Assembly (NCBI GenBank): GCA_963677925.2
Contig: CAXXYH010000003.1
Span: forward strand, 1,568,001-1,632,000
Reading direction: 5' to 3'
Length of the DNA stretch: 64,000 nt
Source of the DNA: Spirochaetia bacterium
GTDB lineage: Bacteria; Spirochaetota; Spirochaetia; UBA9216
Part shown: in pieces, positions 17,571-44,316 of the stretch
Layout: every line of letters starts with the position of its first letter
Position numbering within the stretch: the first letter of the stretch is position 1
Translations under genes and position numbers: made by a program
The notes under the pieces: generated by a model
What the model was told of the DNA's origin: nothing
The model's database searches: none
The model's input: only the letters and a program-made list of their open reading frames with translations

Positions 17571-17749
17571 ATCGAACTAAATTTCCGCTGCTGACTGAAA
17601 AACAAGCTAACCATACATCAACTCATAATGCTGGAATAAAATTTGGAATTTATTCTGCTGTTATACATGTACTACCCTATTGCTTTCTACTCTAGTTCAT
17701 TCTATATTTTTATAACTTCATAACTTTTTATTATATTAGGAGACATACA

Positions 17750-28222: not shown

Positions 28223-29893
28223 TCAGGATAGTCCTGTTATTTCTCCGTTTGAATCTATATCCATTCCACAGGCTGCAGGTACCCTCGGCAGCCCGGGCAT
28301 GGTCATTATTTCTCCTGTGATTGCAACTATAAAGCCGGCTCCGGCTGATACTCTTATCTCTCTTACCGTTACCCGAAATCCGCGCGGGGCGCCTAAGAGG
28401 GCGGCATTGTCGGAAAAAGAGTACTGGGTCTTCGCCATGCATATGGGCATCTTATCAAGCCCAAGCTTTTCTATGTCGCTTATCTGTTTCTTTGCTGATG
28501 CTGTAAAATCTACCCCATCTGCATGATAGATGGATTTGGCTATCACGCTTATCTTTTCCTCTATGCTGCTTTCACTATCATAAAGCGTATGGAAATCGGC
28601 TTTTCCGCTTTCACATATTTCAACTACTTTTTTTGCAAGCTCTATGCCGCCCTCTCCGCCTTTTGCAAATACTTCAGACAGCACTACTGAAGCTCCAAGA
28701 GCACCGCATCTTTTTTCGATAAGTTTAAGTTCAGCTTCTGTATCTGCGGGAAAGCGGTTTATGGCAACAACTGCCGGAACTCCGAACAGGGCGAGGTTTT
28801 CAAGGTGCTGCTCAAGGTTCACAATTCCGCTTCCAAGCGCTTCGAGATTCTCTGCTCCAAGTTCGCTCTTTGCTATGCCTCCGTTCATCTTAAGCGCCTT
28901 TACTGTTGCTACAATTACTACGGCATCGGGTTTAAGACCTGCATACCTGCATTTTATATTGAAGAACTTTTCTGCTCCCAGGTCGGCTCCGAATCCGGCT
29001 TCGGTTACAACATAGTCAGCCAGTTTAAGCGCTGTACGCGTTGCTACTACCGAGTTGCATCCGTGGGCTATGTTTGCAAAGGGCCCGCCGTGGATGAAGG
29101 CCGGAGTATTCTCAATCGTCTGCACAAGGTTGGGTTTTATTGCATCTTTTAAAAGCAGCGTCATTGCACCAGTTGCTCCAAGGTCTCCGGCTGTTACTGC
29201 CTTGCCGCTGTTGTCATAGGCTACTACCATTCTTGATATCCTTGTCTTTAGATCATCAAGACCGGTTGCAAGACAGAGAATCGCCATTATCTCGGAAGCC
29301 ACTGTAATATCAAAACCGTCCTGGCGGGTTACTCCGTCTCCCTTTGCTCCAAGTCCGACAATAATGTTTCTAAGCGCCCGGTCGTTCATATCAACTACAC
29401 GGCGCCATACTATACGCTTGGGGTTTATTCCAAACTCATTTCCCTGCTGCAGGTGGTTGTCTACCATGGCTGCAAGCAGATTATGTGCCGCTGATATTGC
29501 ATGAAAGTCTCCGGTAAAATGCAGGTTGATATCTTCCATCGGTACTACCTGCGCGTACCCGCCTCCAGCTGCTCCGCCTTTTACTCCGAACACAGGCCCC
29601 AGACTGGGCTCCCTCAGCGTTGTCATTGTCTTTTTTCCTATCTTGTTAAGCGCCATGGAAAGTCCTACATTCGTGGTGGTTTTTCCCTCGCCGGCAGGGG
29701 TCGGGTTGATTGCAGTTACCAGTATCAGCTTCGCGTCTTTTTTATTTTCAAGTCTTTTCAGCACATCAAGCGATACCTTCGCCTTGTACTTTCCGTACAT
29801 TTCAAGTTCATCGTCTTCGATTCCAAGCTCAGATGCTAGCTCTGACACCGGTTTCATCTTTGCTTCCTGTGCGATCTGTACATCAGTTTTCAT
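28223..29893 (-). CDS. fhs: Formate--tetrahydrofolate ligase
   Basis: [45 protein letters not shown]. Start moved to the ATG at 29893 (GGAGG RBS), giving 556 aa. Confidence 0.97.
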
Positions 29894-29971
29894 TATGTAA
29901 TTACCTCCTGCAATAATCAGATTCAAGTTAATTATTGTAGAGATTTTAAGGTAAGAGATTTTTCGGGTATA

Positions 29972-29987
29972 TACGCAGAATTATGTA
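29972..29987. promoter_or_regulatory. 7-2-7 operator copy upstream of fhs
   Basis: TACGCAG-AA-TTATGTA; minus-strand -10 TAAAAT at 29948-29943 (23-bp gap). Confidence 0.7.
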
Positions 29988-30040
29988 TTTTAATATATGT
30001 GTATTTTTATAAAAGCTTTGTTTATCATTATTAAATATTA

Positions 30041-31081
30041 TCAGTTATTCATAAGAAAAACTGTGAAAGAGCTGCCTTTCCCCTGGCTGCTTTCAACCTC
30101 AATTCGTCCCTGACAAAGAATCAGAATCCTGTGCACTATGGATAAACCAAGGCCCAGACCGGGCTGCCGGCTGTTTGCTTTGTCCTGAAAATACTTTTCA
30201 AAAATACGAGTTTTCGCTTCTTCATCCATTCCTATACCCTTATCTGTTATTGAAAAAACAATCTCGCCATTCTTGGAGCTGAGAGATATTGATATATTTC
30301 CGCCAGGGCTGGAATATTTAACTGCATTATCCAGCAGATTTATCCAGATATGTTTCATAAGCTCCGGATTTCCGGAATACTTGACCGGACTCAAATCTAC
30401 AGATAATTCGATTTCTTTTTTATTAATCTGAGGCATAAGCAGAATTACAGATTCACGTACCTGTTCATCCAGCTGAAAATAAGTCTGATTCAGGATAATA
30501 TGCTGAGATTCCAGCTTTGTGATGAGCAGAGCATTGTCGGAAAGACTGGCCAGTCTTTTAGATTCGGAAGTTATTATATCAAGATATTTCCACGCTTCTT
30601 CCTCCGGGAGCTCTTCATCCCTCAGAATAGTGGAAAATCCATTAATTGACGTGATCGGGGTTTTAAACTCATGGGAAAAGTGATTAATAAAATCATCTCT
30701 CAGAGTCTGAACACCCTCAAGTTCCGAAGCCATTTTATTAAAATTCCGGAACAGCTCAGACATGGCCCCGGCATCTGATTCATCCAGCCTGACAGAAAAA
30801 TCTCCATCAGCTACTGTTGTAATACCGTTCATCAGCTGGTTGATGTATTTACTGCTGATCTTTATAAAATTATAAGATACCAGCCACATGAATAGACTCA
30901 TGGGGCCAATCATTCCAAGAGCATCGATAGGATCATATTTCCAGTTGTGTTTAATTATGCCGTTTACGAAAAACTCAACCAGTAGGAAAGTCATCACGGA
31001 TATAATTACAATTATCACAGACTGCAGAATCATCCACCTTCTCAAAGGCTTGTTTTTCATGATTTTTGTTTTCTGCTTCAT
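30041..31081 (-). CDS. HAMP-domain sensor histidine kinase
   Basis: 2 TM; SHEFKTPI; NLLDNAVKY; DKGIG; GLGLGL. Confidence 0.93.
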   Translation of the reverse strand: MKQKTKIMKNKPLRRWMILQSVIIVIISVMTFLLVEFFVNGIIKHNWKYDPIDALGMIGPMSLFMWLVSYNFIKISSKYINQLMNGITTVADGDFSVRLDESDAGAMSELFRNFNKMASELEGVQTLRDDFINHFSHEFKTPITSINGFSTILRDEELPEEEAWKYLDIITSESKRLASLSDNALLITKLESQHIILNQTYFQLDEQVRESVILLMPQINKKEIELSVDLSPVKYSGNPELMKHIWINLLDNAVKYSSPGGNISISLSSKNGEIVFSITDKGIGMDEEAKTRIFEKYFQDKANSRQPGLGLGLSIVHRILILCQGRIEVESSQGKGSSFTVFLMNN

Positions 31082-31761
31082 TTACCAACCTCTTCAGTTA
31101 TCTCAGCCTTATAACCTATCCCGCGGACTGCAACAATTTCAATTTCATTAAACATCTTTAATCTGTTTCTAAGTCTGCTTACATGGGTTTTAACAGTGTC
31201 TTCACCGCTTTCGGTAGTAAAACCCCAGATATCATCAAGCAGCTGATTTTTTGTAAAGATCTGCCCCTTGTATGAAAGCAGCTTGAACAGCAGGTCAAAT
31301 TCCTTCTTTGATAATTCAATCTTCTGCTCATTATTTGAAACAGTGTAGGTTGACGAATCTATTACAAGCTCCCCTTCGATAATTTTATTACTTACAGCTA
31401 TATTTGATCGGCGTAGAAGCGCTTTTATCCGCCAGACAAGTTCCTCGGGATCAACAGGTTTTGTCAGAAAATCATCAGTACCCTTTGAAAAACCCGTCCT
31501 TTTTGCATCAAACGACTGATTGGCTGTCAGAATAATAACAGGGAACTGAAACCCGAGCTTTCTGATATTCTGGAGCAGTGTAAAACCGTCCATTACAGGC
31601 ATTTCAATATCAGCAATCAGAAGATCAATCGAACGCGATCGAATTATTTCAAGCGCCTGCGCACCATCCGGTGAGCTTATCACATTAAAATTGGACCTCA
31701 GTTTTCGACTTATCAGAAGCTGAACATTCTCATCATCTTCAGCAAAAAGGATGGTTGCCAT
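31078..31761 (-). CDS. OmpR family response regulator
   Basis: AEDD, DIEMPVMDG, KP, wHTH VKTHVSRLR, RGIGYK. Confidence 0.93.
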   Translation of the reverse strand: MATILFAEDDENVQLLISRKLRSNFNVISSPDGAQALEIIRSRSIDLLIADIEMPVMDGFTLLQNIRKLGFQFPVIILTANQSFDAKRTGFSKGTDDFLTKPVDPEELVWRIKALLRRSNIAVSNKIIEGELVIDSSTYTVSNNEQKIELSKKEFDLLFKLLSYKGQIFTKNQLLDDIWGFTTESGEDTVKTHVSRLRNRLKMFNEIEIVAVRGIGYKAEITEEVGK

Positions 31762-31831
31762 CTTAAAAACTCCGGAGCAAGATTATTATACATAATAGAA
31801 TCTTATCTCCGGAACCACAAGATGACTATTG

Positions 31832-32695
31832 TTATACAGCTACTTTGTTCTTTTTCAATTTCAGGCCATCAACCGAGTTCATTATACCGCCGTGGTTTGC
31901 AGCCATGACTTTACTGATCATAGCGGCAGCCTTCAAGGGAGCTAACCTGTAAAGAATATCCATCATTTTGGCATCGGATCCGACAAGGACCTTGGCCTTG
32001 TTCTTCCCGATTGCACTGATAATAATTGCTGCGGCTTCTTCAGGTTTTGTAAGGGATACCCCCGCCTTTTTCTTGGCTTCCTCGCTTATTTCAGCATTCT
32101 CAAGACCTGAGTTTTTCTTGATATCAGTCTCTATACCGCCCGGTATCACAAGAGATACCCCTATTGCGGTTTTGGAAAGTTCCATCCTCAGAGCCTCTGT
32201 CGCAATCTTTACAGCAGCCTTTGATGCCCCGTAGACGGCCTGCCCTGGAACAGGAAGAAATCCGCCCATGCTTGAAACATTCGCGATATGGCCTTCAGGT
32301 CTTTCTGCTATATATGGGAGAAATGCCCTGACCATATTCATCATTCCGTAAAAATTAATATTTAACTGCCGTTCTATCTGGGAATCCTCAATGTCTGCAA
32401 GGGTCATAAAGGGCTGAATTATTCCGGCATTATTAATCAGACCATCAATTTGACCGTGAACTTCATTGATTTCAGCGGCAAGATTGCTAACCCTGAACTT
32501 ATCTGTTATATCAGCAGTATGAATTGATACTTTGCCGGAATCAATACCTGCAGCCATTTTGGTTTGTTCAAGTGCGTTTCTGTTGATATCAATGGCAGCA
32601 ACCCTTGCGCCCTTTTTAAGCAGCTGAAGAACCAGCTGCCTTCCTACTCCGCCGCCTGCTCCTGTTACTGCTATTACCTTATTATTTAATTTCAT
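31832..32695 (-). CDS. Short-chain dehydrogenase/reductase
   Basis: TGAGGGVG, NNAGI, SSMGG, YGASK. Confidence 0.92.
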   Translation of the reverse strand: MKLNNKVIAVTGAGGGVGRQLVLQLLKKGARVAAIDINRNALEQTKMAAGIDSGKVSIHTADITDKFRVSNLAAEINEVHGQIDGLINNAGIIQPFMTLADIEDSQIERQLNINFYGMMNMVRAFLPYIAERPEGHIANVSSMGGFLPVPGQAVYGASKAAVKIATEALRMELSKTAIGVSLVIPGGIETDIKKNSGLENAEISEEAKKKAGVSLTKPEEAAAIIISAIGKNKAKVLVGSDAKMMDILYRLAPLKAAAMISKVMAANHGGIMNSVDGLKLKKNKVAV

Positions 32696-32864
32696 TGTCG
32701 TACTCCTTTATGCGGCTTACCGCTTAATCTTTGTTACAATGGTAATTTAGAAAAAAAAGGTAACAATAAAGTAAACTTTTGATTTTTTTTAAAGTTTTTT
32801 TAAAATCTTGAGATTTGATATCAGACTTTCAATTTAATATAATTCGGATATACAAGGAGTAAAA

Positions 32865-33992
32865 TTGACGGAAGTCTGGCTTAAAACTATTATCAATATA
32901 ATCTGCTCTCAATTTGCAGTCCTTATGTTTGCAAAAATAGAGAACAAAAAAGAGAATAATCACCATGATTACAGATTATTCAAGATAATGCTTCTCACAA
33001 TCATAGTCCTGCTGCTCCTCCATTCTCTGACTTTATTTACCAACGGTTCAAAAGAAGCCCCTGGGAAAATAATCCTGCAGGCATCTGTTTTCCTGCTCTT
33101 TCCGGCAGCAGGCTTTCTTGCCATGATCTATGCGATATATATGGAAAAAATCATAAAAACAGTTAAACGACGTTTCAGATACTGGCTATTTCTCTATACC
33201 ATTCCTTTAATTATTATCACAGGCCTCTGCGTTGCCTCCGAATTTACCCACTGGTTTTTCACCTTTGATGATGAGGGTTATTTCCATCAGGGGCGTTTTT
33301 TCTATATACCGATAATCATCTCATTCGGATACGTAATCACTGCACTGTTCAGGGTTATATCGCAAAGAAAAAATATGAATATCAGGGAATATTCAGACCT
33401 GGTCGCAATGCCTGTTCCAATGATTGTGACAGGAACACTGCAGAGTTTTTTTCCTGAATTTCCAATTCTACTCCCGGGATGCGTGCTGACACTTTTTCTT
33501 GTATTTTCAATCATACAGGATAGACGGCTTTCCTTTGATCATCTGACAGGTGCATACAACAGACAGAAACTGGATGAATACCTGGAGTTGATGTCTGGAA
33601 ACTCCACAGCATCAGGAAAAAACTTTGCGGCTATGCTTGCGGATGTAAATAAATTCAAGTTTATCAATGATACCTATGGGCACCTACAGGGAGATCTTGC
33701 CCTTATTGAGGTAGTAAAAACCATTAGAAGCGGTATAAGGAATATTGATTTCCTGGCCAGGTATGCAGGTGATGAATTTGTTGTAATATTTCCTGACTGC
33801 AATGAACAACAGCTCAATTCGATTATTTCTAGAATAAATCAGAATTTCAGTCTGATTGCCGCAAAAAATACAAAATACAAACTATCCATAAGCATCGGTG
33901 CAGATGTATATAATCATGAAGTTTTTAAGAATCCGGAGCATTTCATAGAACATCTTGATGCACTGATGTATAAATCCAAACATAAAAACTGA
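32865..33992 (+). CDS. Membrane-anchored diguanylate cyclase-like protein (AGDEF)
   Basis: Multi-TM N-terminus; DHLTGAYNR, FKFINDTYGHLQGD, ARYAGDEF. Confidence 0.88.
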   Translation: MTEVWLKTIINIICSQFAVLMFAKIENKKENNHHDYRLFKIMLLTIIVLLLLHSLTLFTNGSKEAPGKIILQASVFLLFPAAGFLAMIYAIYMEKIIKTVKRRFRYWLFLYTIPLIIITGLCVASEFTHWFFTFDDEGYFHQGRFFYIPIIISFGYVITALFRVISQRKNMNIREYSDLVAMPVPMIVTGTLQSFFPEFPILLPGCVLTLFLVFSIIQDRRLSFDHLTGAYNRQKLDEYLELMSGNSTASGKNFAAMLADVNKFKFINDTYGHLQGDLALIEVVKTIRSGIRNIDFLARYAGDEFVVIFPDCNEQQLNSIISRINQNFSLIAAKNTKYKLSISIGADVYNHEVFKNPEHFIEHLDALMYKSKHKN

Positions 33993-34100
33993 AACTTGAG
34001 AGTAAATACTCAATTTTTTTTCTCACACCGAAAAACAGACGATATACTTAGAACTGATTATTTTTGGAAGAAAATATAAATGTCGCGGAAAGCAGAAAGA

Positions 34101-34132
34101 TGGCATCATAATTCTATAGAATTATGATGCCA
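34101..34132. repeat. Perfect 32-bp palindrome between convergent genes (probable terminator)
   Basis: tggcatcataattcta|tagaattatgatgcca, no spacer. Confidence 0.75.
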
Positions 34133-34157
34133 AAAAAATAGATTGGAGTTAAAACCG

Positions 34158-34838
34158 CTAAAAGGCAAGCTTATATCCCGCATTAAGAATGATATTACGT
34201 CTGGCATAAAGCGAGACAGGCTCACCATTAGTCGCTTCCATTTTGGTTGATGAGAAATCAAAAAGATACCTCATATCCAGCACAACAAATCCAGGGCCTG
34301 CTTTTATATTGCCTGTTACACCTGCGGTTCCGCCAAATATCGGAGAAATGCCTTTAAGCTGTGATGTAAGTTCTGCTGAAGTAATCATTCCTGCAAGCGG
34401 TATAGAAATATAAGGACCCATATAGTAGTCAAGGATCCATACATCTGAAACCTTAGACTCCATACCAAACAAAACGGGAATATCGATTGTGGACACCGAA
34501 ACTTCACAGAGTGAATCATTCGAAATTCCTATAGTTTCATCTTCATAAGTAAAATGAAAGCCATTACCTACACCATTATTAAAAAGCATCCCTGCTTCGG
34601 GTCGAATAAAAAAGCCACCTGACTCACTTCCAAAAGTGATCTGCGATGAAATCAAAAAACCGGGAATGATATTCATATTATCATCACTGGCACCATAGAT
34701 ATCATCGAACTCACCGGTTCGCACTGAACCGACACCGGAACCGAAACTGCCGTTGATTCCCAGACTGACATCTGCAAAGGCTGTACCGCCTATGACCAGT
34801 ATTGCAATTAACAAAGTAATTATTTTTGTGTGTTTCAT
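34158..34838 (-). CDS. Outer-membrane beta-barrel protein (PorT-like)
   Basis: Signal peptide, amphipathic strands (IDIPVL, GPYISIP, LDMRY), C-terminal AGYKLAF. Confidence 0.7.
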   Translation of the reverse strand: MKHTKIITLLIAILVIGGTAFADVSLGINGSFGSGVGSVRTGEFDDIYGASDDNMNIIPGFLISSQITFGSESGGFFIRPEAGMLFNNGVGNGFHFTYEDETIGISNDSLCEVSVSTIDIPVLFGMESKVSDVWILDYYMGPYISIPLAGMITSAELTSQLKGISPIFGGTAGVTGNIKAGPGFVVLDMRYLFDFSSTKMEATNGEPVSLYARRNIILNAGYKLAF

Positions 34839-34854
34839 TAGTTTATCCTATTAA

Positions 34855-35388
34855 TTATGAATTGGACTGAAGATTAAAGGCTTTCTCACAAACTGTGTAA
34901 AGGACTTCATATTGATTATCAACGAGGGGTGTAATTGTTTCAATTTTTCTGTTGCGTATCTTAATGAAGAGAAAATACGGTAATACCCACCCGGCGAACG
35001 CAGGAACAGCAAGCAGAATAGTAAGAATTATATATCCCGCAAGATAAGCAAATACCGAACCGGCCATAAATGCAGAACCGGCAATTCCAACAGTATATGC
35101 AGCAGTGCTTGCTGATACATATTTAGACTGTTCAAGATGCTGAATATCTTTTACACATGACTCAAATTGTCTTTGAAGTCTGGTAATCTCCATCTTTTTA
35201 CCAATTTTACGATCTCTCTTAAATCTTAAGACAGTGTATAAAAGACCCTTGCTTGAGTGGGAAACATTTTCAATATTCCATCCGAAGTTCTGATAGTTAT
35301 CGATGTAAAGGTGTTCAATATCACGCCTTACCGTTACATCCTTGTATTCATAACCGACGAAGGTTGCTGAGCTATTCGTTTCATTCAT
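34855..35388 (-). CDS. Conserved hypothetical membrane protein
   Basis: FVGYEYK..YIDNYQNFGW..FKRDRK soluble part, two C-terminal TMs; RBS AGGAG. Confidence 0.7.
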   Translation of the reverse strand: MNETNSSATFVGYEYKDVTVRRDIEHLYIDNYQNFGWNIENVSHSSKGLLYTVLRFKRDRKIGKKMEITRLQRQFESCVKDIQHLEQSKYVSASTAAYTVGIAGSAFMAGSVFAYLAGYIILTILLAVPAFAGWVLPYFLFIKIRNRKIETITPLVDNQYEVLYTVCEKAFNLQSNS

Positions 35389-35451
35389 GTTTAATCTCCT
35401 ATGATGTATTAATTTATTGATTCTACACTCAAGAAAATAAACCGGTGATAT

Positions 35452-35479
35452 TTATGATTTACTTATGAAATATTGCTGA
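35452..35479. promoter_or_regulatory. 11-bp-period direct repeats (OmpR-type site)
   Basis: TTATGA (35452), TTATGA (35463), TGCTGA (35474) upstream of the 35388 gene, next to an OmpR pair. Confidence 0.45.
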
Positions 35480-35499
35480 AATGTTAAACTTTAAATTTT

Positions 35500-36567
35500 T
35501 TATCGATTTATGGAGATCATAAAAGTTGAGCCCTTATTCAGTTCGCTTTGTACAGTAATTGTTCCATTAATAATTTCTATTACCCTATACACAAGCGACA
35601 GACCAAGCCCATTACCTTCCTGAGAGCGGGAAGAATCCCCCTGATAGAACTTGTCGAAAATATGACTTAATGTTTTTTCATCCATCCCGCAGCCGTTATC
35701 AGAGATAGATATTTCAACATGCTCATCAAAACTCACCTGCGTCAACTTTATAACTCCATGCTCGTCTGTAAACTTCACTGCATTGGAAAACAGGTTATTC
35801 CACACCAGTTCCAGAATGGTTTTATCCGCATTTATAATACAGCGTTCCTCTATGGAGGTCTCAAGTCTTATCTTTTTAAGATCAAGTATATCTTCAAAAT
35901 TTAAGGCGCACTCACAAAGTTGACGACAGAGATCAAATGATTCTGCAGCCGGTCTGATTTCCTGATTCTCCAGCTTATTTAGCCGGAGTATATTTGAAAC
36001 CAGCTCAGTCAGTCTTTTAGATGCTGTTATAATAGTTTCTGTATAATCGCTTCTTTCGGCTTCTGAAAGATCATGCTTTTGCAGCGCTGTTGCGTAACTT
36101 TGAATTACAGAAAGAGGTGATTTAATTTCATGAGATACATTTGAAATAAAATCATTTTTAAGGGTTTCTATTGTTCCAAGCTCCTCTACCATTTTATTAA
36201 AATCTTCGAAAAGCACATCTATATAATCATATTTATCAGGAGAATGTACAGTTTCAAGATAAACAGAGAAATCTCCTGAAGCTACATTTTCTGCCGCATT
36301 ACTCAAACGCTTAAGAGGCATGTCATAACGTTTATTCTTCTGCGTAGTCGTGATTATAAAAAAAACTAAAGTAACAATACCCCAATACCCAAGCATTCCG
36401 GCAATAAAAGCTGGTGGTGCATTCTCAAGATCAACATATTCATAAAATATCATAAACTGTCCGGCAGACAAAACAAGTAAAATCAGATATGTAAAAAGAT
36501 ATTCAATCCAGGGAAAATATTTTCGTTTTATCCTGGAATCTATTGATGAAGACTTATTTTCAATCAT
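35500..36567 (-). CDS. HAMP-domain sensor histidine kinase
   Basis: SHEIKSPL, NLFSNAVKF, DNGCG, GNGLGL. Confidence 0.93.
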   Translation of the reverse strand: MIENKSSSIDSRIKRKYFPWIEYLFTYLILLVLSAGQFMIFYEYVDLENAPPAFIAGMLGYWGIVTLVFFIITTTQKNKRYDMPLKRLSNAAENVASGDFSVYLETVHSPDKYDYIDVLFEDFNKMVEELGTIETLKNDFISNVSHEIKSPLSVIQSYATALQKHDLSEAERSDYTETIITASKRLTELVSNILRLNKLENQEIRPAAESFDLCRQLCECALNFEDILDLKKIRLETSIEERCIINADKTILELVWNNLFSNAVKFTDEHGVIKLTQVSFDEHVEISISDNGCGMDEKTLSHIFDKFYQGDSSRSQEGNGLGLSLVYRVIEIINGTITVQSELNKGSTFMISINR

Positions 36568-37235
36568 TCAATCACCGCTTTATACCCAAGCCCATGAACA
36601 GTTATGATTTTAAAATCGGAACATGAAGAAAATTTATCCCGTAATTTTGTTATATAAACATCAACAGCTCTCAAGCTTGTATCACCATCGGAATCCCAGA
36701 ACTCATCTATAAGCTGTGCTCTGGAAAATGTTTTTTTGGGATAGGACAATAGTTTATACAGGATATTAAACTCCCGGAATGTAACAGGAATTTCAATATC
36801 ATTTACCTGCGCTGATACAGCATCAGCATCCAATACCAGAGACTGGAGTACTATTTTTCTTTCTGCTTTTATATTGGAACGCCTTAACAGTGCACTGACT
36901 CTCAATACAAGTTCATTCATATCAATGGGCTTAACCATGTAATCATCTATACCTGCATTAAATCCCCGTTGTTTTGATACAAAATCATCTTTTGCCGATA
37001 CAAAAAGCATTGGAATTGTCTCATTTACAGCTCTTACCGCTTTAGCAAATTCAAAACCGTCTATTTCTGGCATCATTATATCGGATATTATCAAATCAAA
37101 CATTTTAGTGTTCATTCTGTTATAAGCTTCAACAGGATTCAGACAGCCCTCTGATGAATAACCATTTTCATCCATATAAGTACAAATCAACCGGTTAAGT
37201 TTTATATCATCTTCAACTACAAGAATATTTATCAA
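36564..37235 (-). CDS. OmpR family response regulator
   Basis: VEDD, DIMMPEIDG, VDVYITKLR, HGLGYK. Confidence 0.93.
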   Translation of the reverse strand: MINILVVEDDIKLNRLICTYMDENGYSSEGCLNPVEAYNRMNTKMFDLIISDIMMPEIDGFEFAKAVRAVNETIPMLFVSAKDDFVSKQRGFNAGIDDYMVKPIDMNELVLRVSALLRRSNIKAERKIVLQSLVLDADAVSAQVNDIEIPVTFREFNILYKLLSYPKKTFSRAQLIDEFWDSDGDTSLRAVDVYITKLRDKFSSCSDFKIITVHGLGYKAVIE

Positions 37236-37366
37236 AAGATGCTCCTTATAATAACTAAAGAATGACTTGTTATAATAAATCTATTTGCTGATTAAATTCT
37301 ATTCGACAGAAAGGATATTTTTTATATATTTCCGTAATAATTCTGAAATGTTTCTGTTTTGTTAAT

Positions 37367-37397
37367 AAAAAAGGCAGATCAATCAACCGGATCTGCC
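37367..37397 (-). terminator. Rho-independent terminator after the SDR
   Basis: ggcagatc-N9-gatctgcc followed by TTTTTT on the minus strand. Confidence 0.75.
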
Positions 37398-37415
37398 AGA
37401 ATTTATATTTATATT

Positions 37416-38309
37416 TTACTTTTGAATCATCAGTCGTGTTCCGCCGTCAACTACAACAACTTCTCCGTCCATGAACGAGGTTACACCTGTACACATCATG
37501 TAAACAACACGGGCTACATCATCAGGATCTGCAACAGGAGCTTTAACCGCCTGTGTCCTTTTTTCCTTCGCTGAATCTGTAGCGTCCATATTCATTGCTC
37601 CAGTTGTAAGCATTCCAGCCGGTGCCACACAGTTGACAGTAATGCCTGCAGGTTTTAATTCACGGGCTAAAGACTGAGAAATACCGACAACCCCGGACTT
37701 GGCTGCTACATAAGGAGAGAGGCATCCGGCGGAAGATTCCATTGAAATTCCGGCTACTGATGCAACATTAACAATATGGCCGCCTGTACCCTGTTTTATC
37801 ATTTGCCTCGCAGCCGCCTGATCAAAGAAAAAGGTTCCTTTTAAACCGGTATCCACGACTAGATCATAATCTTCTTCATCAATATCAACAAATTCTTCCA
37901 TCCTCCAGTGAGCAGCATTACTCACCAGAATATCAAGCTTTCCGAACTCTTTTACTGTAAAATCAACTGCTTCATTTATCTGTTTAACATCCCGGACATC
38001 TGCCTTAAAGAATTTCACATCAAAGCCCTTTCCGGAAAAAAACTCTATGGCAATCTCTGCATATTCTTTTGCAATATCAACTATCATGACCTTTGCACCG
38101 GCTTCACACAGTCTGTTGACAATACAGGCGCCCAGCCCCATTGCGCCTCCTGTGACCACCGCGACCTTCCCGCTCAGGCTTAAAATTTCTGCCATAGGGA
38201 CAGCATTTGCCAGTCCGGCCATTTTTATTCCCGGAGCGGCTTCCATTCCCCTCACATCCACACCAAGCAGACGTTTAAAACCTTCATGAAATTTGTCCAA
38301 TTCCTTCAT
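37416..38309 (-). CDS. Short-chain dehydrogenase/reductase with N-terminal extension
   Basis: TGGAMGLG, SNAA, ASVAG, YVAAK, VDGG. Confidence 0.9.
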   Translation of the reverse strand: MKELDKFHEGFKRLLGVDVRGMEAAPGIKMAGLANAVPMAEILSLSGKVAVVTGGAMGLGACIVNRLCEAGAKVMIVDIAKEYAEIAIEFFSGKGFDVKFFKADVRDVKQINEAVDFTVKEFGKLDILVSNAAHWRMEEFVDIDEEDYDLVVDTGLKGTFFFDQAAARQMIKQGTGGHIVNVASVAGISMESSAGCLSPYVAAKSGVVGISQSLARELKPAGITVNCVAPAGMLTTGAMNMDATDSAKEKRTQAVKAPVADPDDVARVVYMMCTGVTSFMDGEVVVVDGGTRLMIQK

Positions 38310-38367
38310 TAAATTCTCCTGTCTATTTTATTTTGAAATTATAGGGTTATGAATTCTTAACTTGAAA

Positions 38368-38383
38368 TACATAAATTTATGCA
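38368..38383. promoter_or_regulatory. 7-2-7 operator copy upstream of the SDR
   Basis: TACATAA-AT-TTATGCA; -10 TATAAT at 38343-38338 (24-bp gap). Confidence 0.8.
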
Positions 38384-38409
38384 TTAAAACTTTTTATTAA
38401 TCTGATAAC

Positions 38410-38449
38410 AAAAACAGCCGGCTGCATAATTTTACAGTCGGCTATTTTT
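38410..38449 (-). terminator. Terminator after the PanB-like gene
   Basis: aaaaacagccggctg-N10-cagtcggctattttt hairpin with A/T tails. Confidence 0.7.
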
Positions 38450-38490
38450 AACTCTTCTGATGTATAATGAATTATTATTCTTATATCTTA

Positions 38491-39378
38491 TTATACTTTT
38501 TCTATTGCATTCAAAAATTTCTCCAGCTCTCTATCTTCCATATGAAATCCATGCTTATCTTCAGGATACGCTCCTGTTCGTACATCATTAGCCCATGCAC
38601 CATATGCAGTTGCTGCCCATTTGAAAAAGTCTCCATAAACCTTTGCATGTGAAGCGAGTGACGGCATCATATTAAAAGTATCAAAATCGACCATCTCGCA
38701 GCCATCTGCAGCTCCGCCTGCTGCGATTGAAATCACAGGAACTCTCAGCTTTTTTGCTATGGCATTAGTTACTTCTATGGGGGTTAATTCTATTGTCATA
38801 GCCATCATTCCATTCTCCTGATATTCATAAGCCATTCTGAAAACTTCCATAGCTTCTTCAGCGGTCTTACCCATTCTTTTATATCCACCGTGTCTGCTTG
38901 TCTGCCATCCGGATAAAGCTCCTACATGACCAAAAACAACCAGGTGGTTGTCTGCCATATATTTAAGTGTATCGTTATTTATTCCCATTGGAAGTAATGA
39001 GTCTGCACCTTCGGCCATATACATTGCACCATATTCAAGAGCCTTTTCTTTTGATGAAAAAGTAGGAGTCTGCATATAAAAATTAATATGAATAAATTTG
39101 GCTGCATTTCTTACAGTTCTAATCCACCATGGTGCGTTTGCTATAGACATAAGTGTATTTTCTGCGGGAACCGTCAAACGGCATATATCACAGCCCGCCA
39201 TTTCTGCCGCCATTGTAAAGTACTGATCGCGGTTGGCAGGGCACATCTGCACTATTGGAGTTCCTTCATCTTTACATTTCTGAAGATATGCAATTGATTT
39301 TCGGCCTTTCTGCATCAGCGAAGCTTTAACTTTTTTATCTTCCTTATTTATTTCGACTTCCTTCTTTTCCTCTGCCAT
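38491..39378 (-). CDS. Divergent PanB-fold (ketopantoate hydroxymethyltransferase-like) protein
   Basis: GHVG, GGYKRMGKT, IELTP, VPVISIAAG..ADG, DVRTGAYP match PanB; the GDS and K.EG metal/substrate motifs are absent. Confidence 0.75.
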   Translation of the reverse strand: MAEEKKEVEINKEDKKVKASLMQKGRKSIAYLQKCKDEGTPIVQMCPANRDQYFTMAAEMAGCDICRLTVPAENTLMSIANAPWWIRTVRNAAKFIHINFYMQTPTFSSKEKALEYGAMYMAEGADSLLPMGINNDTLKYMADNHLVVFGHVGALSGWQTSRHGGYKRMGKTAEEAMEVFRMAYEYQENGMMAMTIELTPIEVTNAIAKKLRVPVISIAAGGAADGCEMVDFDTFNMMPSLASHAKVYGDFFKWAATAYGAWANDVRTGAYPEDKHGFHMEDRELEKFLNAIEKV

Positions 39379-39462
39379 AACAGCTCTCCTTATAATCCAA
39401 AGATTAATATCTTAAATTCGTTAAACCGAATGGTTAACCTGAAAATTTTTATCATTCAGCAT

Positions 39463-39969
39463 TTACTTATAGACAGCGTTTGAACAGATTAAATCAATTG
39501 CTTTTCTTATTTGAAGATCATTTTTTATTGGAGTCAGCTCCTTACCCATAAAATCTATGACCATTTCTAAACTAATATTCTGCCTATGTGCTATCCGGCA
39601 GGCTTCATCTAAAAGTTCAGATTCCGCTGCAAAAATTTTTTCACTTGAAATAATTCCCTGCAGCAGAATTTCTGTTTTTACAGTTTTATAAGCCTCATTT
39701 CTGAATTCTTCTTCTTTTTCATTCCAATCGTAATTTAAAAAATCTTCATTTATTTCATAAGACATACTCTGATATCTCATTCTGCATTTAGCTTCGGTCA
39801 AAATAGTCTGGAATTCTTCCGCCACTGTCTCAGCAGGAACATCAAAATCGTTAGCCTCAAGAACAAGATCAATCAGAATTCCCTGAAGTCTTCTGTCGGT
39901 CTTAGCTGACTCGCAGTTAATGTTCAAGTGCCTGGCATCTACACCCAGATAATTTTTAACAGTTGCCAT
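39463..39969 (-). CDS. Trigger-factor C-terminal-domain-only chaperone-like protein
   Basis: NDFDVPAETV, EAYKTVKTEILLQGI, KAIDLI resemble the TF C-domain; no ribosome-binding or FKBP domain. ATG at 39969 with GGAG RBS. Confidence 0.65.
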   Translation of the reverse strand: MATVKNYLGVDARHLNINCESAKTDRRLQGILIDLVLEANDFDVPAETVAEEFQTILTEAKCRMRYQSMSYEINEDFLNYDWNEKEEEFRNEAYKTVKTEILLQGIISSEKIFAAESELLDEACRIAHRQNISLEMVIDFMGKELTPIKNDLQIRKAIDLICSNAVYK

Positions 39970-40028
39970 CTTCCAGTCTCCGTGCACAAGTTACAGGAAA
40001 TGATAACTCCGGCATGAGCTGACGTAAA

Positions 40029-40044
40029 TACATAGATTTATGCA
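40029..40044. promoter_or_regulatory. 7-2-7 operator copy upstream of the TF-like/PanB-like genes
   Basis: TACATAG-AT-TTATGCA; -10 TATCAT at 40005-40000 (23-bp gap). Confidence 0.8.
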
Positions 40045-40089
40045 ATTATTTGCATCATTTGAGAAATGATTTAAATTGTAAAATATAAT

Positions 40090-40872
40090 TTATATTTCTG
40101 GAGAAATTCCGTAGCGAATCAATTTCAGAATAAGCTCCTGTCTTGAAGACACTTTAAGCTTAAGATGAATATTGGCAATGTGCCTATAGATTGTCGAGAC
40201 ACTTATAAAAAAGCGATCACTTATCTGGCCCGGAGACAAGCCTTCGCAGATAAGTCTTGCGATCTCTCTTTCCCTTTTTGAAAGTATACCTTCAAGCTCT
40301 TCAACCTTATTCTCATTATGAACTGAGAGCATCACATGCATATTTCTGAAAAGATTTTCCAGGTGTGGATATACAGCCTTCATAATACCGATTTCAGTTT
40401 TGTTAAAACTACAGCGGCCCACACGATCCAGGGCAAATACGCACCTTACAAAATCATCATTTGCATGCAGGGTAAACCCTGCACTGTATGAGATTCCCTG
40501 TGGTTTAATATAATCTTTTAAAAACTCATCTTCATAATGACTCGTCCAGTCTTTAATTCCGACATCAAAGTTTTTTTTATAATCAGCAATATTATCTTTG
40601 ATTTTCAAAACTGAATATTTTCCATTTTCAACTTTTGAATAATAATCAAGATAGGCATCTGTCCATTGTTTATCTGCCCCTATCTGGCAGACATCCTGAA
40701 TATTTCCATTGACGTTTAAAAAAAATATTCTGGCCTGTTCAAAAGGAACAAGTTCATAAATGTTTTCGATAGATTTATTTATAAAGGCTTTAGGTTCTCT
40801 TTCATTACCTGTTTTAAGGAGATAATTGCTAATACTGGCCCAGGGTAATTCTTCTGAATATTTATGTACCAT
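40090..40872 (-). CDS. LuxR-family regulator (GAF/autoinducer-like N-domain + HTH), paralogue 1
   Basis: LSKREREIARLICEGLS..QIS..FFISVSTIYRHIANI.LKL.VSSR. Confidence 0.9.
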   Translation of the reverse strand: MVHKYSEELPWASISNYLLKTGNEREPKAFINKSIENIYELVPFEQARIFFLNVNGNIQDVCQIGADKQWTDAYLDYYSKVENGKYSVLKIKDNIADYKKNFDVGIKDWTSHYEDEFLKDYIKPQGISYSAGFTLHANDDFVRCVFALDRVGRCSFNKTEIGIMKAVYPHLENLFRNMHVMLSVHNENKVEELEGILSKREREIARLICEGLSPGQISDRFFISVSTIYRHIANIHLKLKVSSRQELILKLIRYGISPEI

Positions 40873-40971
40873 AAATAAATCTCTTTTCTTTATGAAGCCT
40901 GAAAGTACCGTACAACAAGTAAATAATAAATGCCTTACCGCTTATTATATATTATTTATGCCGACAGTATA

Positions 40972-40987
40972 TACATAATTTTATGTA
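40972..40987. promoter_or_regulatory. 7-2-7 operator copy upstream of LuxR paralogue 1
   Basis: TACATAA-TT-TTATGTA (perfect arms, flanked by gacagta...tactgtc); -10 TATAAT at 40949-40944 (22-bp gap). Confidence 0.82.
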
Positions 40988-41021
40988 GTACTGTCTTAAA
41001 AACGTAAAGTTAGGCCAATTT

Positions 41022-41051
41022 AAAAGGCAGATAAGTAAATATCCGCCTTTT
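41022..41051 (-). terminator. Terminator after the 407-aa gene
   Basis: aaaaggcggata-N6-tatctgcctttt on the minus strand. Confidence 0.7.
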
Positions 41052-41067
41052 AACAATTTCTGCATTT

Positions 41068-42291
41068 TCAGCAGAATTTATCAATCTTTTTTGAAATTAT
41101 AAGACGTATAGTATCTTCCGGAACATTTTCAAACTCTCTCCAGACCGACCATCTTGCTCCAATCAGAGTTTTACTCATTCCATACCACATTGATAGATAA
41201 GCAGGAACCATAAGAGGATAACGCCGTTCCAGAGCGGCCTGCTTAAATTCGTATATAACTTCATTTTCGTTAAAATTAATAATTGAATATTCTATCAATA
41301 AAACCTGAAGTATTACTTCAATAAATCCACCAAGAACCCGGCCGTCATTAACATCATTTGGAACGCCCAGCCAGTCCCGAAGTCCTTTTATGGCAAAGAA
41401 TTCCCCGAACATCGTCTTGCCTGTAGCCTCAAACATACATCTGATCATATGCTCAACACTTTGCGGGTCTAATTCACCAGAGGCAATCTTTACATTTAAA
41501 ACATTTATCACGTATGAAGCTCCCAGAGGGTGAACAAGTGTTGATCCGTAACACTGCGCCGCTGTTAGTTCGCCTGTTAATCCGTTACTGAATTTGTAGC
41601 CGCATTCCTCTCTAAGCTGCATAGGTTCCACAACCATCTGCTCTTCAGGAGTGAATTTTATCTGGTCATCAGTTGCTATTGGTCCGAACTTTTCCCAGAC
41701 CTGCTTTTCCGGCATAGGAAATTTTGTACGATCTTCAGCTATAACCCTGCAATGAAGATCACCGCATCCGATAGCTTCTACCATATTATATTCAGTGTCT
41801 GGGCCGAAGGCTTCACCGACACCCTGCAGGGATGCCGTAGTTGCACGGCAGAATTCCGATCCCAGAATATCCCAGGGGCAGACATCAAGCTCCTTTTCTA
41901 CTCTGTACTGTCCGAAATCATTCACTCTGCCAGGCATACACTGCCGATCATCCCCGGCATCTCCCATGACACCGCCAATATACCCTCCCTGCATAAAAGG
42001 GTGTATACAGTAATTATCAATATTCATCTGCTTGACTATCGGCATTGAAAACATACCTGCCATTGCCTTTCTATTAACCTCACAAAGCAATGAAGCCCTT
42101 TCTTTATAATCAGGTATCAATATACGTAAAGCCTGAATAAAAACCGTATCAATAACCGGGATATGCCGGCATAAATAGTGATATGCATCATGGAAAGAAA
42201 TCAATTTCTCCCATGGGGTTTTTATTGCAGGGTGTTCAGGAAGAGCCCCCTTACCAACTTCTCTTGGTATATGTGTACTATATTTACTCAT
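41068..42291 (-). CDS. Uncharacterised Cys-motif protein, V4R/ATC-hydrolase-like metal site
   Basis: ELDVCPW..GSEFC...VEAIGCGDLHCRV resembles the CP..C..GD..C signature of V4R-type domains; RBS AGGAG. Confidence 0.55.
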   Translation of the reverse strand: MSKYSTHIPREVGKGALPEHPAIKTPWEKLISFHDAYHYLCRHIPVIDTVFIQALRILIPDYKERASLLCEVNRKAMAGMFSMPIVKQMNIDNYCIHPFMQGGYIGGVMGDAGDDRQCMPGRVNDFGQYRVEKELDVCPWDILGSEFCRATTASLQGVGEAFGPDTEYNMVEAIGCGDLHCRVIAEDRTKFPMPEKQVWEKFGPIATDDQIKFTPEEQMVVEPMQLREECGYKFSNGLTGELTAAQCYGSTLVHPLGASYVINVLNVKIASGELDPQSVEHMIRCMFEATGKTMFGEFFAIKGLRDWLGVPNDVNDGRVLGGFIEVILQVLLIEYSIINFNENEVIYEFKQAALERRYPLMVPAYLSMWYGMSKTLIGARWSVWREFENVPEDTIRLIISKKIDKFC

Positions 42292-42321
42292 CTTATTTCT
42301 CCTAACTGATATATAACCGAC

Positions 42322-43338
42322 TTAATAAAAGACTTTTTCGGTGACTAAAGCTTCAAATCCGTTCATTTTTACTTTATCCCCGATATTTACTTTTCCTTTA
42401 TCAAGTAATGCATAACCGATATTCTTGTTTATCATGTAAGAATAACTGACTTTTTTTACTATCCCTACTTTTTGATCATCAAGAAAAACTTCTGCCGGAA
42501 CGTTTCCTATACTGCTGTTCGGAATATGGATATCATCTTCATCAACCGTAAAACCGAACATTTGCCTTTTTGGTCCTTCTTCCTTAATTTTAGCAAGGGC
42601 AGCTTTCCCAATAAAATTCTTGTTCCAGTCGATGGATCGTTCAAATCCAACCTCAAGCGGGTTTGTTCCTTTAAGATCAGCCATAAGATAAAGCCCTTTT
42701 TCAGTGGACAGCGTCCAGGCAAGCACCTGAAACTCTGTAATATGAACAGCTCCGAAAGCAGTTCCGGCTTCGGATAGTTTTTCTGCAATCACCGGAGTGT
42801 TTTCGGGATCAGAATAAATTTCATAACCGATTTTTTCGCCTGCAAAGCCGGCTCTGGCTATTTTAACAGGTATACCATCAAAACTGTTATCTGCAATAGT
42901 GAAGAATTTCATGTCGTCAATTGGTTTTGCAAGTAAAACATTTAACAAATCTTTTGATCTGGGGCCCTGAACAGAATGCATATCCCATTTCGGGGTTACA
43001 TCAGCATATTCTACTTTTAATCCTTCTTTGTGAGCATCGAACCAGTCTGTCAGTCTTTTTTTAAACAGCGTAGATATCCAGAATTTTTGCTGCTCGATCC
43101 GGAAGATAACAACATCATCAATAATTATACCTTCATCATTAAGCGCTGTTGTATACCTTGCACATCCTGTTTTTAAAGATGAAATGTTATTCACGTAAAT
43201 TTTATCAAGAAACGATACAGAATCTTCGCCAGTTACTTCTATCAGATAATGCGTGAAGTAGTACCATCCGACAGTCTTTCGAACAGCTTCGTGCTGTTCT
43301 CTTTTCATTTCATCATCTTTATAAACGTTCTTAAACAT
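42322..43338 (-). CDS. GcvT-family THF-dependent aminomethyltransferase/demethylase-like protein
   Basis: QHEAVRK, G.IIDDVVIFR, VQGPRS, RAGFAGE..GYEIY, NFIGKAAL; no GcvP or GcvH in the window. Confidence 0.88.
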   Translation of the reverse strand: MFKNVYKDDEMKREQHEAVRKTVGWYYFTHYLIEVTGEDSVSFLDKIYVNNISSLKTGCARYTTALNDEGIIIDDVVIFRIEQQKFWISTLFKKRLTDWFDAHKEGLKVEYADVTPKWDMHSVQGPRSKDLLNVLLAKPIDDMKFFTIADNSFDGIPVKIARAGFAGEKIGYEIYSDPENTPVIAEKLSEAGTAFGAVHITEFQVLAWTLSTEKGLYLMADLKGTNPLEVGFERSIDWNKNFIGKAALAKIKEEGPKRQMFGFTVDEDDIHIPNSSIGNVPAEVFLDDQKVGIVKKVSYSYMINKNIGYALLDKGKVNIGDKVKMNGFEALVTEKVFY

Positions 43339-43393
43339 ATAGACCGCTCCTTTCGGGGATTACGGCGATTTTACCTTTCTGCCTTTTAGACAT
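43331..43393 (-). CDS. Putative 20-aa leader ORF overlapping the GcvT-like start
   Basis: GGGAGG RBS, then ATG 43393: MSKRQKGKIAVIPERSGLYV*. Confidence 0.35.
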   Translation of the reverse strand: MSKRQKGKIAVIPERSGLYV

Positions 43394-43470
43394 AAATCTT
43401 CCTCCCTATAATACAACATTCAGTGAATTGCTTATTTATTCAGGCTAAACCCACTGGATTTATTCATAAA

Positions 43471-43486
43471 TACACTATTTTATGTA
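43471..43486. promoter_or_regulatory. 7-2-7 operator copy upstream of the GcvT-like operon
   Basis: TACACTA-TT-TTATGTA; candidate -10 TAGCCT at 43447-43442 (23-bp gap). Confidence 0.72.
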
Positions 43487-43533: not shown

Positions 43534-44316
43534 TCAGTTAGCAGGAATTATTCCAAAACTATATAATTTGATAATTAGCTCCTGTCTGCTGCAGACATTT
43601 AATTTCTGGTAGATATTGGCAATATGCCTGTAAACGGTTGAAATACTTATAAAGAGTTTTTTGCTGATCTGATCCGGATTTAAACCCTCACAAATATGAC
43701 GGGAAATTTCACGCTCGCGGACTGATAGAATATCATCAAGCTTTTCAATATTTTTTTCATTATTTTTTAATAATGTAATATGTAAATTCCTAAACAGATT
43801 TTCCAGATGGAGCAGTATGATTTTCATGATAGCCTGTTCCCTCTTCGAATAACCTCTTTTACTGACTCTATCCAGGGCAAAAACACATTTAACAAAATCA
43901 TCGTATGCATGAATTGTAAATATAGCACTGTAGTTAATCCCCTGCGGTTTTATGTAATCTTTTAGAAATTCATCCTCAGACTGGGCAGTCCAATCAAGAA
44001 CACTGATATCTATATCAGTATAATACTTTGAATAATCTTTTATTAGATTCCCGATTGAATATTTGCCATTATCCAGTTTGGAATAATATTCAAGATAGAC
44101 ATCTGTCCAGTCCTTTTTTGTACCCATTTGCCAGTAATCGTTAATTTTACCATTGGTATTGAAAAAAAAGATTCGTGCCTGCTCGAATGGAATCAAATCA
44201 GATATATTTTGAATAGACTTATCAATAAAGGCTTCAGGGTCTCTTACACTCCCTGTTTTAAGCAGATAATCATTTATATTATTCCATGGTAATTTTTCAA
44301 CATACTTGGATTCCAT
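43534..44316 (-). CDS. LuxR-family regulator, paralogue 2
   Basis: Same length (260 aa) and collinear with 40090-40872; LSVREREI..ICEGL..ISISTVYRHIANI. Confidence 0.9.
   Translation of the reverse strand: MESKYVEKLPWNNINDYLLKTGSVRDPEAFIDKSIQNISDLIPFEQARIFFFNTNGKINDYWQMGTKKDWTDVYLEYYSKLDNGKYSIGNLIKDYSKYYTDIDISVLDWTAQSEDEFLKDYIKPQGINYSAIFTIHAYDDFVKCVFALDRVSKRGYSKREQAIMKIILLHLENLFRNLHITLLKNNEKNIEKLDDILSVREREISRHICEGLNPDQISKKLFISISTVYRHIANIYQKLNVCSRQELIIKLYSFGIIPAN

Follow-up and report, generated by a model that had tools for sequence, protein, structure and literature searches.

At the Escherichia coli yeaR promoter, NarL occupies a 7-2-7 site centred at -43.5, just 5' of the -35 element (PMC10853779). 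The activator PmfR switches on a purU-mabO-folD operon (PMC3891541), and in the trimethylamine N-oxide (TMAO) demethylase Tdm a catalytic core makes formaldehyde that is tunnelled to a tetrahydrofolate (THF) site (PMC13619132). One-carbon (C1) units are removed from plant aromatics by BrdA (PMC5547118) and by the lignin deformylase LdpA (PMC9942872). Here we describe a 64,000-nucleotide stretch of a Spirochaetia bacterium (contig CAXXYH010000003.1 of assembly GCA_963677925.2; hereafter the window), in which five copies of a 16-bp site precede an fhs cassette, an SDR gene, a trigger-factor-domain gene with a panB-like gene, a gcvT-like gene with its neighbour U407, and luxR1, one of two LuxR-type regulator genes. 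We consider it likely that these sites are the operators of a LuxR regulon, and that the regulon encodes a pathway for stripping one-carbon units from a substrate. The regulon would be a new variant of folate-linked C1 catabolism, drawn from two uncharacterised enzyme families, and the regulated enzymes, left undefined by the sequence-only reading that first pointed to the sites, are its most novel part. Comparison loci and genomes are cited by our own labels (L and G; C, contig).

The sequence-only reading had proposed five 7-2-7 palindromes, each beside a TAnnnT hexamer on the minus strand. All five 16-mers and all five hexamers were recovered (Table 1), the sites being intergenic and 5' of minus-strand genes throughout. 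The palindromic character stands only in part, as the symmetry is imperfect: two sites end in GCA, and the arms pair at 4/7 positions in the fhs site and 5/7 in the gcvT site, counted from the sequence. The hexamer of the gcvT-like promoter matches the -10 consensus at only 3/6 positions, making it the weakest promoter of the five. Scored with a symmetric matrix, the sites take ranks 1-5 among 5,044,142 bases (16.9-20.8 bits; next 16.4), a ranking that is partly circular because the matrix derives from the same five sites. With each site left out in turn, those of SDR, the trigger-factor C-terminal domain (TF-C) gene and luxR1 were equalled or exceeded by 2, 3 and 3 genome positions, all inside the window. 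Between 20 and 48 kb of the window there are five matches of at least 13 bits, against a shuffle mean of 0.19 and maximum of 2 (200 shuffles in 100-bp blocks, with the matrix built from these sites). Genome-wide, 45 matches exceed 11 bits, and none falls within the native fhs-folD-panB region (C3:322-330 kb). The sixth-best match, C3:1732821 (16.4 bits), was dropped as a candidate: it ends 24 bp before a start codon, where a promoter cannot fit.

A spacing of 22-24 nt between site and hexamer is found for 5/5 window sites by the TAnnnT rule and for 4/5 by a stricter rule. Outside the window we considered 25 sites, comprising intergenic matrix matches or palindromes beside family or regulon genes and chosen without regard to any -10 element; 17 of them show a -10-like hexamer at 22-24 nt, and every other non-overlapping 3-nt window holds at most 7. 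A 23-nt gap would place the site centre at -43.5 relative to the predicted start, and the six bases past the site often form a weak -35-like element (TTTACA or TTTACG, for example). Over 25.0-44.6 kb, a generic sigma-70 scan called 53 promoter-like sites where chance would give 55, and just one of the five predicted promoters was among them, an outcome that is consistent with weak -35 boxes and is not evidence on its own. The 22-24 nt geometry reproduces the NarL/yeaR arrangement and supports the activator position beside -35 that had been proposed, a position of class II. The two systems share a LuxR-type helix-turn-helix (HTH), a 16-bp 7-2-7 palindrome, a centre near -43.5 and an adjoining weak -35 element, as far as the published description of yeaR extends (PMC10853779). 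They differ in the half-site, TRCATAA here, and in the regulator: NarL is a phosphorylated two-component protein, whereas the local LuxR proteins lack a receiver domain and have a GAF/autoinducer-binding-like one. The operator adds a member to a familiar class, and the switch obeys textbook NarL/LuxR rules. From motif, geometry and conservation, all of which rest on sequence, we infer binding and activation: a ligand-bound LuxR dimer would bind the 7-2-7 site near -43.5, 5' of the weak -35 element, and activate five promoters including that of luxR1. We hold with considerable confidence that the sites are operators of this GAF-like LuxR family, and nearly as firmly that they serve activation.

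Conservation in other genomes provides an independent test of the motif, which it passed. The GAF-like LuxR proteins form a distinct family of about 40 clusters. We compared 20 loci with full-length or end-truncated members (L003, L017-L032, L035, L104 and L105; 168 kb) with 14 U407 loci lacking the family (164 kb) and with 63 generic LuxR loci matching mainly the HTH (566 kb). At 15 bits or more there are 9 matches in 7/20 family loci, none in the 14 U407 controls and 3 in 3/63 generic loci; at 19 bits or more the corresponding numbers are 7, 0 and 0. Block shuffles of the family loci yield a mean of 0.08 and a maximum of 1 at the lower threshold (60 shuffles). The family loci contain 16 near-perfect TAC-N10-GTA palindromes of any inner sequence (in 10/20 loci), the U407 set contains one, and the generic set 13 (in 11/63). 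The motif is enriched at family loci over both control sets and shuffles, and the 16-mer of operator 4 recurs unchanged in L003, L019, L020, G454 and G237. Moreover, recognition helix and operator follow a partial code: YRH/YRY helices go with TRCAYA half-sites (window, L003, L018, L019, L020, L021, G454), and YKH helices accompany TACATA, TACCYA, TACTNA or no site (for L017 and L027 the available sequence is insufficient to compare). Two operator types stand together at L003 (3581, 5082, 8983), with TACCCAA half-sites near an intact LuxR of helix ETVYKHIAH and a window-type operator beside a broken LuxR of helix ATVYRYIAN. A near-identical site was also seen at two of the generic-LuxR controls, L064:3381 and L076:690, so this operator may also be recognised by certain LuxR proteins from other families.

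The proposed link between the fhs cassette and the enzyme cluster is supported by the sites of a clostridial genome (G474). There, SDR, luxR and focA-fhs-fchA-folD run on one strand behind a 19.7-bit site whose TATAAT hexamer is 23 nt away, the SDR being 63% identical to that of the window. The regulon predicts a site for the panB-like gene too, which is unlinked on another contig; this forecast, which might have proved wrong, is borne out by an 18.6-bit site some 80 bp upstream of the gene, its hexamer likewise 23 nt away. A third pattern match in this genome lies within a gene. In L003, L018, L025 and G454, no more than a few kb separate fhs from family LuxR genes, and SDRs 54-63% identical lie beside LuxR-family genes in L021, L023, G474 and G714. 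The LuxR and PanB-like families occur in the same 3/399 genomes of the clostridial class (G561 and G820 being left out of these counts), one of which is G454, the centre of the search. In this Mogibacterium sp., the genome of L007, about 45 kb (C11:67-112 kb, L117-L119) holds the whole set with four sites: two U407-GcvT pairs, a TF-C protein, four PanB-like paralogues, a canonical-looking PanB and focA-folD-fchA-fhs, together with many SDRs and zinc dehydrogenases, four family LuxR proteins and two PucR-type regulators. This island is the best natural system for finding the substrate series. In both G454 and G714, U407-GcvT and SDR-PanB-like genes share one gene run under different regulators, so the modules are linked apart from the operator. 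A perfect operator far from the family LuxR of its own genome (L132; G237 C25:51202) precedes a small protein and an SDR, and is a candidate unlinked regulon member. At L018:3874-4180 and L019:901-1296, two back-to-back operators lie 3' of luxR, one of which would drive a promoter antisense to luxR. The fhs-fchA-folD genes of L018 have no operator of their own; the antisense transcript could traverse luxR into them, tying fhs induction to negative feedback.

Both regulators score above the PF00196 (LuxR HTH, GerE) cut-off and, by Pfam, neither has a receiver domain, which sets them outside the two-component NarL/FixJ class. In LuxR2, the paralogue that was modelled, the N-terminal domain is predicted to resemble GAF and LuxR ligand-binding domains (Z 11-13.6). 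A ligand-binding fold joined to a LuxR HTH is shared with CepR2, VqsR, QscR, SdiA and LasR (Z 10.9-12.6). Unlike quorum-sensing LuxR proteins, to which structural alignments give 11-19% identity, the local regulators have no synthase gene among the open reading frames (ORFs) of 22-50 kb, and their targets are catabolic-looking enzymes. The similarity to acyl-homoserine lactone LuxR domains is one of fold, with no Pfam autoinducer-binding match at E 0.01. The recognition helices, STIYRHIAN and STVYRHIAN, are one conservative change apart, so both paralogues can probably read the same site. Whether both act on all five sites, as the sequence-only reading had it, we regard as evenly balanced; luxR2 has no site upstream, and a cascade or a ligand split is as likely as joint action. 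The strongest competing explanation, to which we give somewhat less than an even chance, accepts the regulon and places it under a single master, LuxR2 at a basal level or LuxR1 alone, or lets a shared operator answer to different ligands for the PanB-like and U407 branches. It accounts for the siteless luxR2, for the 39% divergence of the paralogues, for L003 and G454, where paralogues with different helices adjoin variant operators, and for G474, where a single family LuxR was found with the fhs cassette and the unlinked panB-like gene, but it sits poorly with two helices that should both read the same site. Such an arrangement alters the wiring and not the pathway. Of the positive feedback proposed for LuxR1, the site upstream of its gene is confirmed and the G474 arrangement is supportive, and activation from that site is the probable consequence.

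Turning to the enzymes, U407 has 102 relatives (50% clustering), unnamed or hypothetical wherever checked, and no sequence match among solved structures. Its model (predicted local distance difference test, pLDDT, 89.6) comprises two V4R/H-NOX/Bet3-type domains, both halves having structural matches: residues 40-200 resemble DmpR (Z 10.0, root-mean-square deviation 3.3, 146 aligned) and PoxR (Z 9.4), and residues 230-401 resemble BcsD (Z 6.1-6.4). The top natural Foldseek matches are H-NOX, Bet3 and MopR (E 0.002-0.04), with nothing at E 0.001 or below, and the Atlas leads for the homologue P0005 are V4R and ATC hydrolase (0.87). The V4R fold is mostly known from sensors and trafficking subunits. 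Across 29 sequences of the first domain, D111, D114, R130, E132, C138 and C181 are invariant and C148 and E172 nearly so, a pattern that suggests a metal and polar pocket.

A GcvT-like gene adjoins U407 in 14/14 loci extending past U407 (L016 ends before the neighbour and stands outside this count), and in three further pairs. Many of these loci carry PucR-type regulators, Pfam-confirmed in four. The predicted complex of U407 with the GcvT-like protein scores 0.92, against 0.01 for the best of three controls; this mark is reached by 116/157 solved complexes and 2/215 mismatched pairs, counts that are only rough for the alignments used here. At least 97% of contacts agree between runs, with a partner pLDDT of at least 92, and the predicted interface joins U407 residues 111 and 122-130 to the conserved GcvT-like segments 26-31 and 201-204. 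The GcvT-like protein retains D74, D75 and E173, presumably its folate-site residues. It falls below the T-protein equivalogs (133 and 156 bits against cut-offs of 236 and 300), and AWTLS stands where the best solved match has RDTLR. Nor does it belong to the LigM/DesA class of about 460 aa (57-74 bits against cut-offs of 580 and 800): at 338 aa, it is without the insertions and N-terminal extension of the LigM-like proteins of L006. At that locus, in a Eubacteriaceae genome, U407-GcvT is flanked by two LigM/DesA-like proteins (L006:4132-5454, 16746-18125) and by a BaiCD-like flavoenzyme, and a gene for a PucR-type regulator lies close to each of them. The gcvT-U407 order of the window is the reverse of that in all 17 other pairs. 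A 20-codon ORF at 43331..43393 (minus strand), with a strong ribosome-binding site, overlaps the gcvT start and by eye resembles the start of a deleted SDR (compare L018:4181).

The PanB-like protein scores 78-80 bits against panB equivalog cut-offs of 208 and 272, placing it outside that group, and represents a family of 638 clusters at E 1e-40 or better. Residues were aligned to the genome's own PanB and are numbered and interpreted as in E. coli PanB (GDS/D84 metal site, K112, E114, H136, catalytic E181). Among the best 120 homologues, H136 and E181 equivalents are present in 120/120, D84 is replaced by N in 120/120, the D45/S46 segment is gone in all 120 and a GDS motif occurs anywhere in 2/120. 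The K112 and E114 equivalents are lost, so that overall the canonical motifs are missing from at least 118/120 as well as from the window protein. With ketopantoate hydroxymethyltransferase PanB the family shares PF02548, the H136 and E181 equivalents and a plausible CH2OH/methylene-THF exchange; it differs in being about 25% identical to the genome's own PanB, in its loss of the GDS, D84, K112 and E114 equivalents, and in genes that pair with SDRs and formate genes, not with pantothenate genes. The protein may run the PanB reaction in reverse on a beta-hydroxy ketone or aldehyde supplied by the SDR. Sources label the family 3-methyl-2-oxobutanoate hydroxymethyltransferase; since it is without the canonical metal-site motifs, it may be mis-annotated as vitamin B5 synthesis. 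No plasmid record matches the protein at 1e-50. Pantothenate breakdown, suggested by an upstream sodium symporter with PanF among its matches (161 bits against a cut-off of 328), was rejected: no symporter recurs at related loci, and the alpha-keto-acid site motifs are lost. A TF-C homologue lies between panB-like and U407 genes in G454. Chaperone-like genes recur in the clusters, namely TF-C domains, an extra GroEL-like gene (by eye) and a histidine-phosphatase-domain protein (window 39463-39969; L018:6135-8824; G454 C11:81883-82662 and 100249-106529; L025:1272-2381), and one enzyme may need folding help.

In the pathway that we propose, SDRs would oxidise a hydroxyl group of the substrate. 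The PanB-like enzyme, without the usual alpha-keto-acid/Mg site, would run a retro-aldol reaction that moves a hydroxymethyl or methylene group to THF, and U407 would release a formaldehyde equivalent to be trapped on THF by its GcvT-like subunit. FolD and FchA would then oxidise methylene-THF to formyl-THF, Fhs in reverse would yield formate and ATP, and FocA would export the formate. The chemistry is inferred from folds, residues and gene context; FolD/FchA oxidation, ATP formation by Fhs in reverse and formate export by FocA are established for these families. We judge the catabolic direction, from C1 unit to formate, to be likely. The opposite flow, in which formate taken up through FocA would be turned into methylene-THF by Fhs, FchA and FolD, with hydroxymethyl groups then added by the PanB-like and U407-GcvT enzymes to build or detoxify a small molecule, is improbable. 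It is compatible with the reversibility of all the reactions, with the biosynthetic role of canonical PanB and with the MFS proteins of weak efflux-family match in U407 loci, but the loci are rich in dehydrogenases and include demethylase-like GcvT proteins (L006) and an aldehyde:ferredoxin oxidoreductase (L022), the genome already holds a native fhs-folD-panB operon, and no biosynthetic core genes recur at related loci. Inducible one-component LuxR or PucR regulators are, moreover, typical of catabolism.

As to the substrate of this catabolic route, an aromatic plant compound of lignin or lignan type is plausible but less likely than not, a steroid or terpenoid seems unlikely, and other compounds together fall only a little short of an even chance. 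Pointers to an aromatic are weak and all fall short of curated cut-offs: fold matches to phenol sensors, the LigM/DesA-like proteins of L006, coniferyl-alcohol-dehydrogenase-like SDRs (L005, L022) and the L022 aldehyde:ferredoxin oxidoreductase. For U407 and its partner, Tdm may serve as the closest working model. Tdm, like the dimethylglycine and sarcosine oxidases, is described as having a core whose formaldehyde passes to a GcvT-type THF site and becomes methylene-THF; here, unlike in Tdm, the proposed core is a separate subunit of tandem V4R fold without known enzyme relatives, and the subunit contact is a predicted one. In the PmfR system, too, a single activator couples FolD and a step that releases formate to a catabolic enzyme producing methylene-THF (PMC3891541); there the enzymes are an aerobic amine oxidase and PurU, with no ATP-forming Fhs. 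LigM, DesA, BrdA and LdpA likewise take C1 units from plant aromatics, onto THF or as formaldehyde (PMC5547118, PMC9942872), LdpA being described as a cofactor-free NTF2-fold protein, unlike U407 with its GcvT-like partner (PMC9942872).

No description of U407, the PanB-like family or the regulon was found in the open-access literature, a coverage outside which subscription journals and supplements lie. The operator groups orphan proteins into a testable pathway and, with its LuxR, offers a ready biosensor for finding the substrate. If the pair does strip hydroxymethyl groups onto folate, it would represent an undescribed route by which anaerobes modify plant compounds or drugs with a gain of ATP. 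A bolder and rather doubtful extension envisages a mobile energy pathway across several phyla of anaerobes, in which a V4R-fold protein would be the catalytic subunit of a two-part formaldehyde lyase feeding the GcvT-like folate module, a PanB without its metal site would dehydroxymethylate oxidised plant compounds (e.g. at C-gamma of lignin/lignan side chains), each carbon removed would bring formate and one ATP without need of corrinoid or oxygen, and control would lie with a GAF-LuxR family of co-varying helix and operator.

Several observations weigh against the regulon and the pathway proposed for it. Of the five sites, those of fhs and gcvT score lowest, and in leave-one-out scoring 16 and 11 genome positions, respectively, are as good, five of them inside the window in each case. 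Ten of the 20 family loci hold no matrix match at 13 bits, and 10/20 hold no TAC-N10-GTA palindrome. Some site-less family loci are short contigs; L026, L028, the first LuxR of L032 (helix NTIYKHIAN), L023 and G714 have enough room and no clear site, and the helices of G714, L023, L026, L028 and one L032 LuxR are diverged. A degenerate pattern search gave genome counts near those of its reversed control (3 vs 2 in G474; 0 vs 4 in G714), and 4/5 annotated other pattern matches fell inside genes. Family members also stand beside unrelated genes, such as agmatine deiminase (L035) and an ABC transporter (L104), and several loci are closely related, so that the counts overstate independence. On the enzyme side, the V4R match of the U407 model is middling and a fold shows no function, and the reversibility of Fhs and FolD leaves the direction unfixed.

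Two further explanations concern the sites themselves. In the first, which is quite improbable, they serve a repressor, or some other protein binds them, for instance one of the response regulators encoded at 30-37 kb. In its favour are the contact of the sites with the -35 region, where polymerase could be blocked by whatever is bound, and the recurrence in L032 of the island's two-component pairs. Against it stand the weak -35 hexamers, the constant spacing of 22-24 nt, the way in which the sites track the LuxR family and are absent from 14/14 U407 loci lacking it, and the operator variants that accompany helix variants. Least probable of all is that the true operators are limited to the three strong central ones, with those of fhs and gcvT arising by chance in AT-rich DNA and the fhs cassette lying outside the regulon, which the leave-one-out counts and the 3/6 match of the gcvT -10 hexamer would allow, but which is countered by the intergenic position and 23-nt spacing of both sites, by the strong G474 site at the head of a run containing fhs, and by the recurrence of fhs near family LuxR genes.

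Table 1. Putative operators and genes of the regulon, with positions in the window (-10 hexamers on the minus strand; spacing in nt)
Feature	Position	Strand	Attributes
Operator 1 (fhs cassette)	29972..29987		17.4 bits; -10 TAAAAT at 29943-29948, spacing 23
Operator 2 (SDR)	38368..38383		20.8 bits; -10 TATAAT at 38338-38343, spacing 24
Operator 3 (TF-C and panB-like genes)	40029..40044		20.2 bits; -10 TATCAT at 40000-40005, spacing 23
Operator 4 (luxR1, autoregulation)	40972..40987		20.3 bits; -10 TATAAT at 40944-40949, spacing 22
Operator 5 (gcvT-like and U407)	43471..43486		16.9 bits; weak -10 TAGCCT at 43442-43447, spacing 23
focA-type formate/nitrite channel	25841..26698	-	TIGR00790 above cut-off; PF01226
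fchA-like methenyl-THF cyclohydrolase	26711..27340	-	NF045657 192 bits (below cut-off of 275); PF04961
folD, accessory second copy	27337..28212	-	FolD models 197-262 bits
fhs formate-THF ligase, accessory second copy	28223..29893	-	NF010030 933 bits, above cut-off
SDR dehydrogenase	37416..38309	-	PF00106
PanB-like protein	38491..39378	-	PF02548; without GDS, D84, K112/E114; H136 and E181 equivalents kept
Stand-alone trigger-factor C-terminal domain protein	39463..39969	-	PF05698; ATG at 39969 likely start, longest ORF from GTG 39987
LuxR1	40090..40872	-	GAF/autoinducer-binding-like domain and LuxR HTH (PF00196); 61% identical to LuxR2
U407	41068..42291	-	407 aa; no Pfam/NCBIfam family; predicted tandem V4R/H-NOX/Bet3 fold; candidate catalytic subunit
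GcvT-like THF-binding protein	42322..43338	-	PF01571 and PF08669; putative U407 partner
LuxR2	43534..44316	-	PF00196; no operator upstream

The system is an accessory, horizontally moved island, as judged from its GC content, its sparse distribution in the phylum and a closest PanB-like relative named from Clostridiales. GC is mostly 35-40% over 20-48 kb, 46-47% in the fhs cassette and 41-48% in the rest of the window. U407 occurs in 1/60 related genomes and the LuxR family in 2/400 genomes of the phylum; the closest PanB-like relative, 92% identical, is named from Clostridiales, and the host genome has four FlaA matches, as a spirochaete probably would. The genome has a separate native panB-folD-fhs operon, whose folD (C3:326-327 kb) and fhs are 33% and 45% identical to the cassette copies, and the one same-genus genome compared matches the cassette DNA over focA only. 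The 7 kb between fhs and SDR had been called unrelated. The matrix scan finds no operator there, and the description is partly wrong for the genes: the kinase/regulator pairs, the SDR and the membrane protein have homologues 36-59% identical in L028 and L032, which adjoin LuxR-family and panB-like genes. Across 30041-31761 and 35500-37235, this part of the window carries two kinase/regulator pairs, a small membrane protein, an SDR and a GGDEF protein, all without an operator. A second focA, with 76% protein identity, is found at G000 C4:2573650-2574489, and the same-genus genome contains a similar match.

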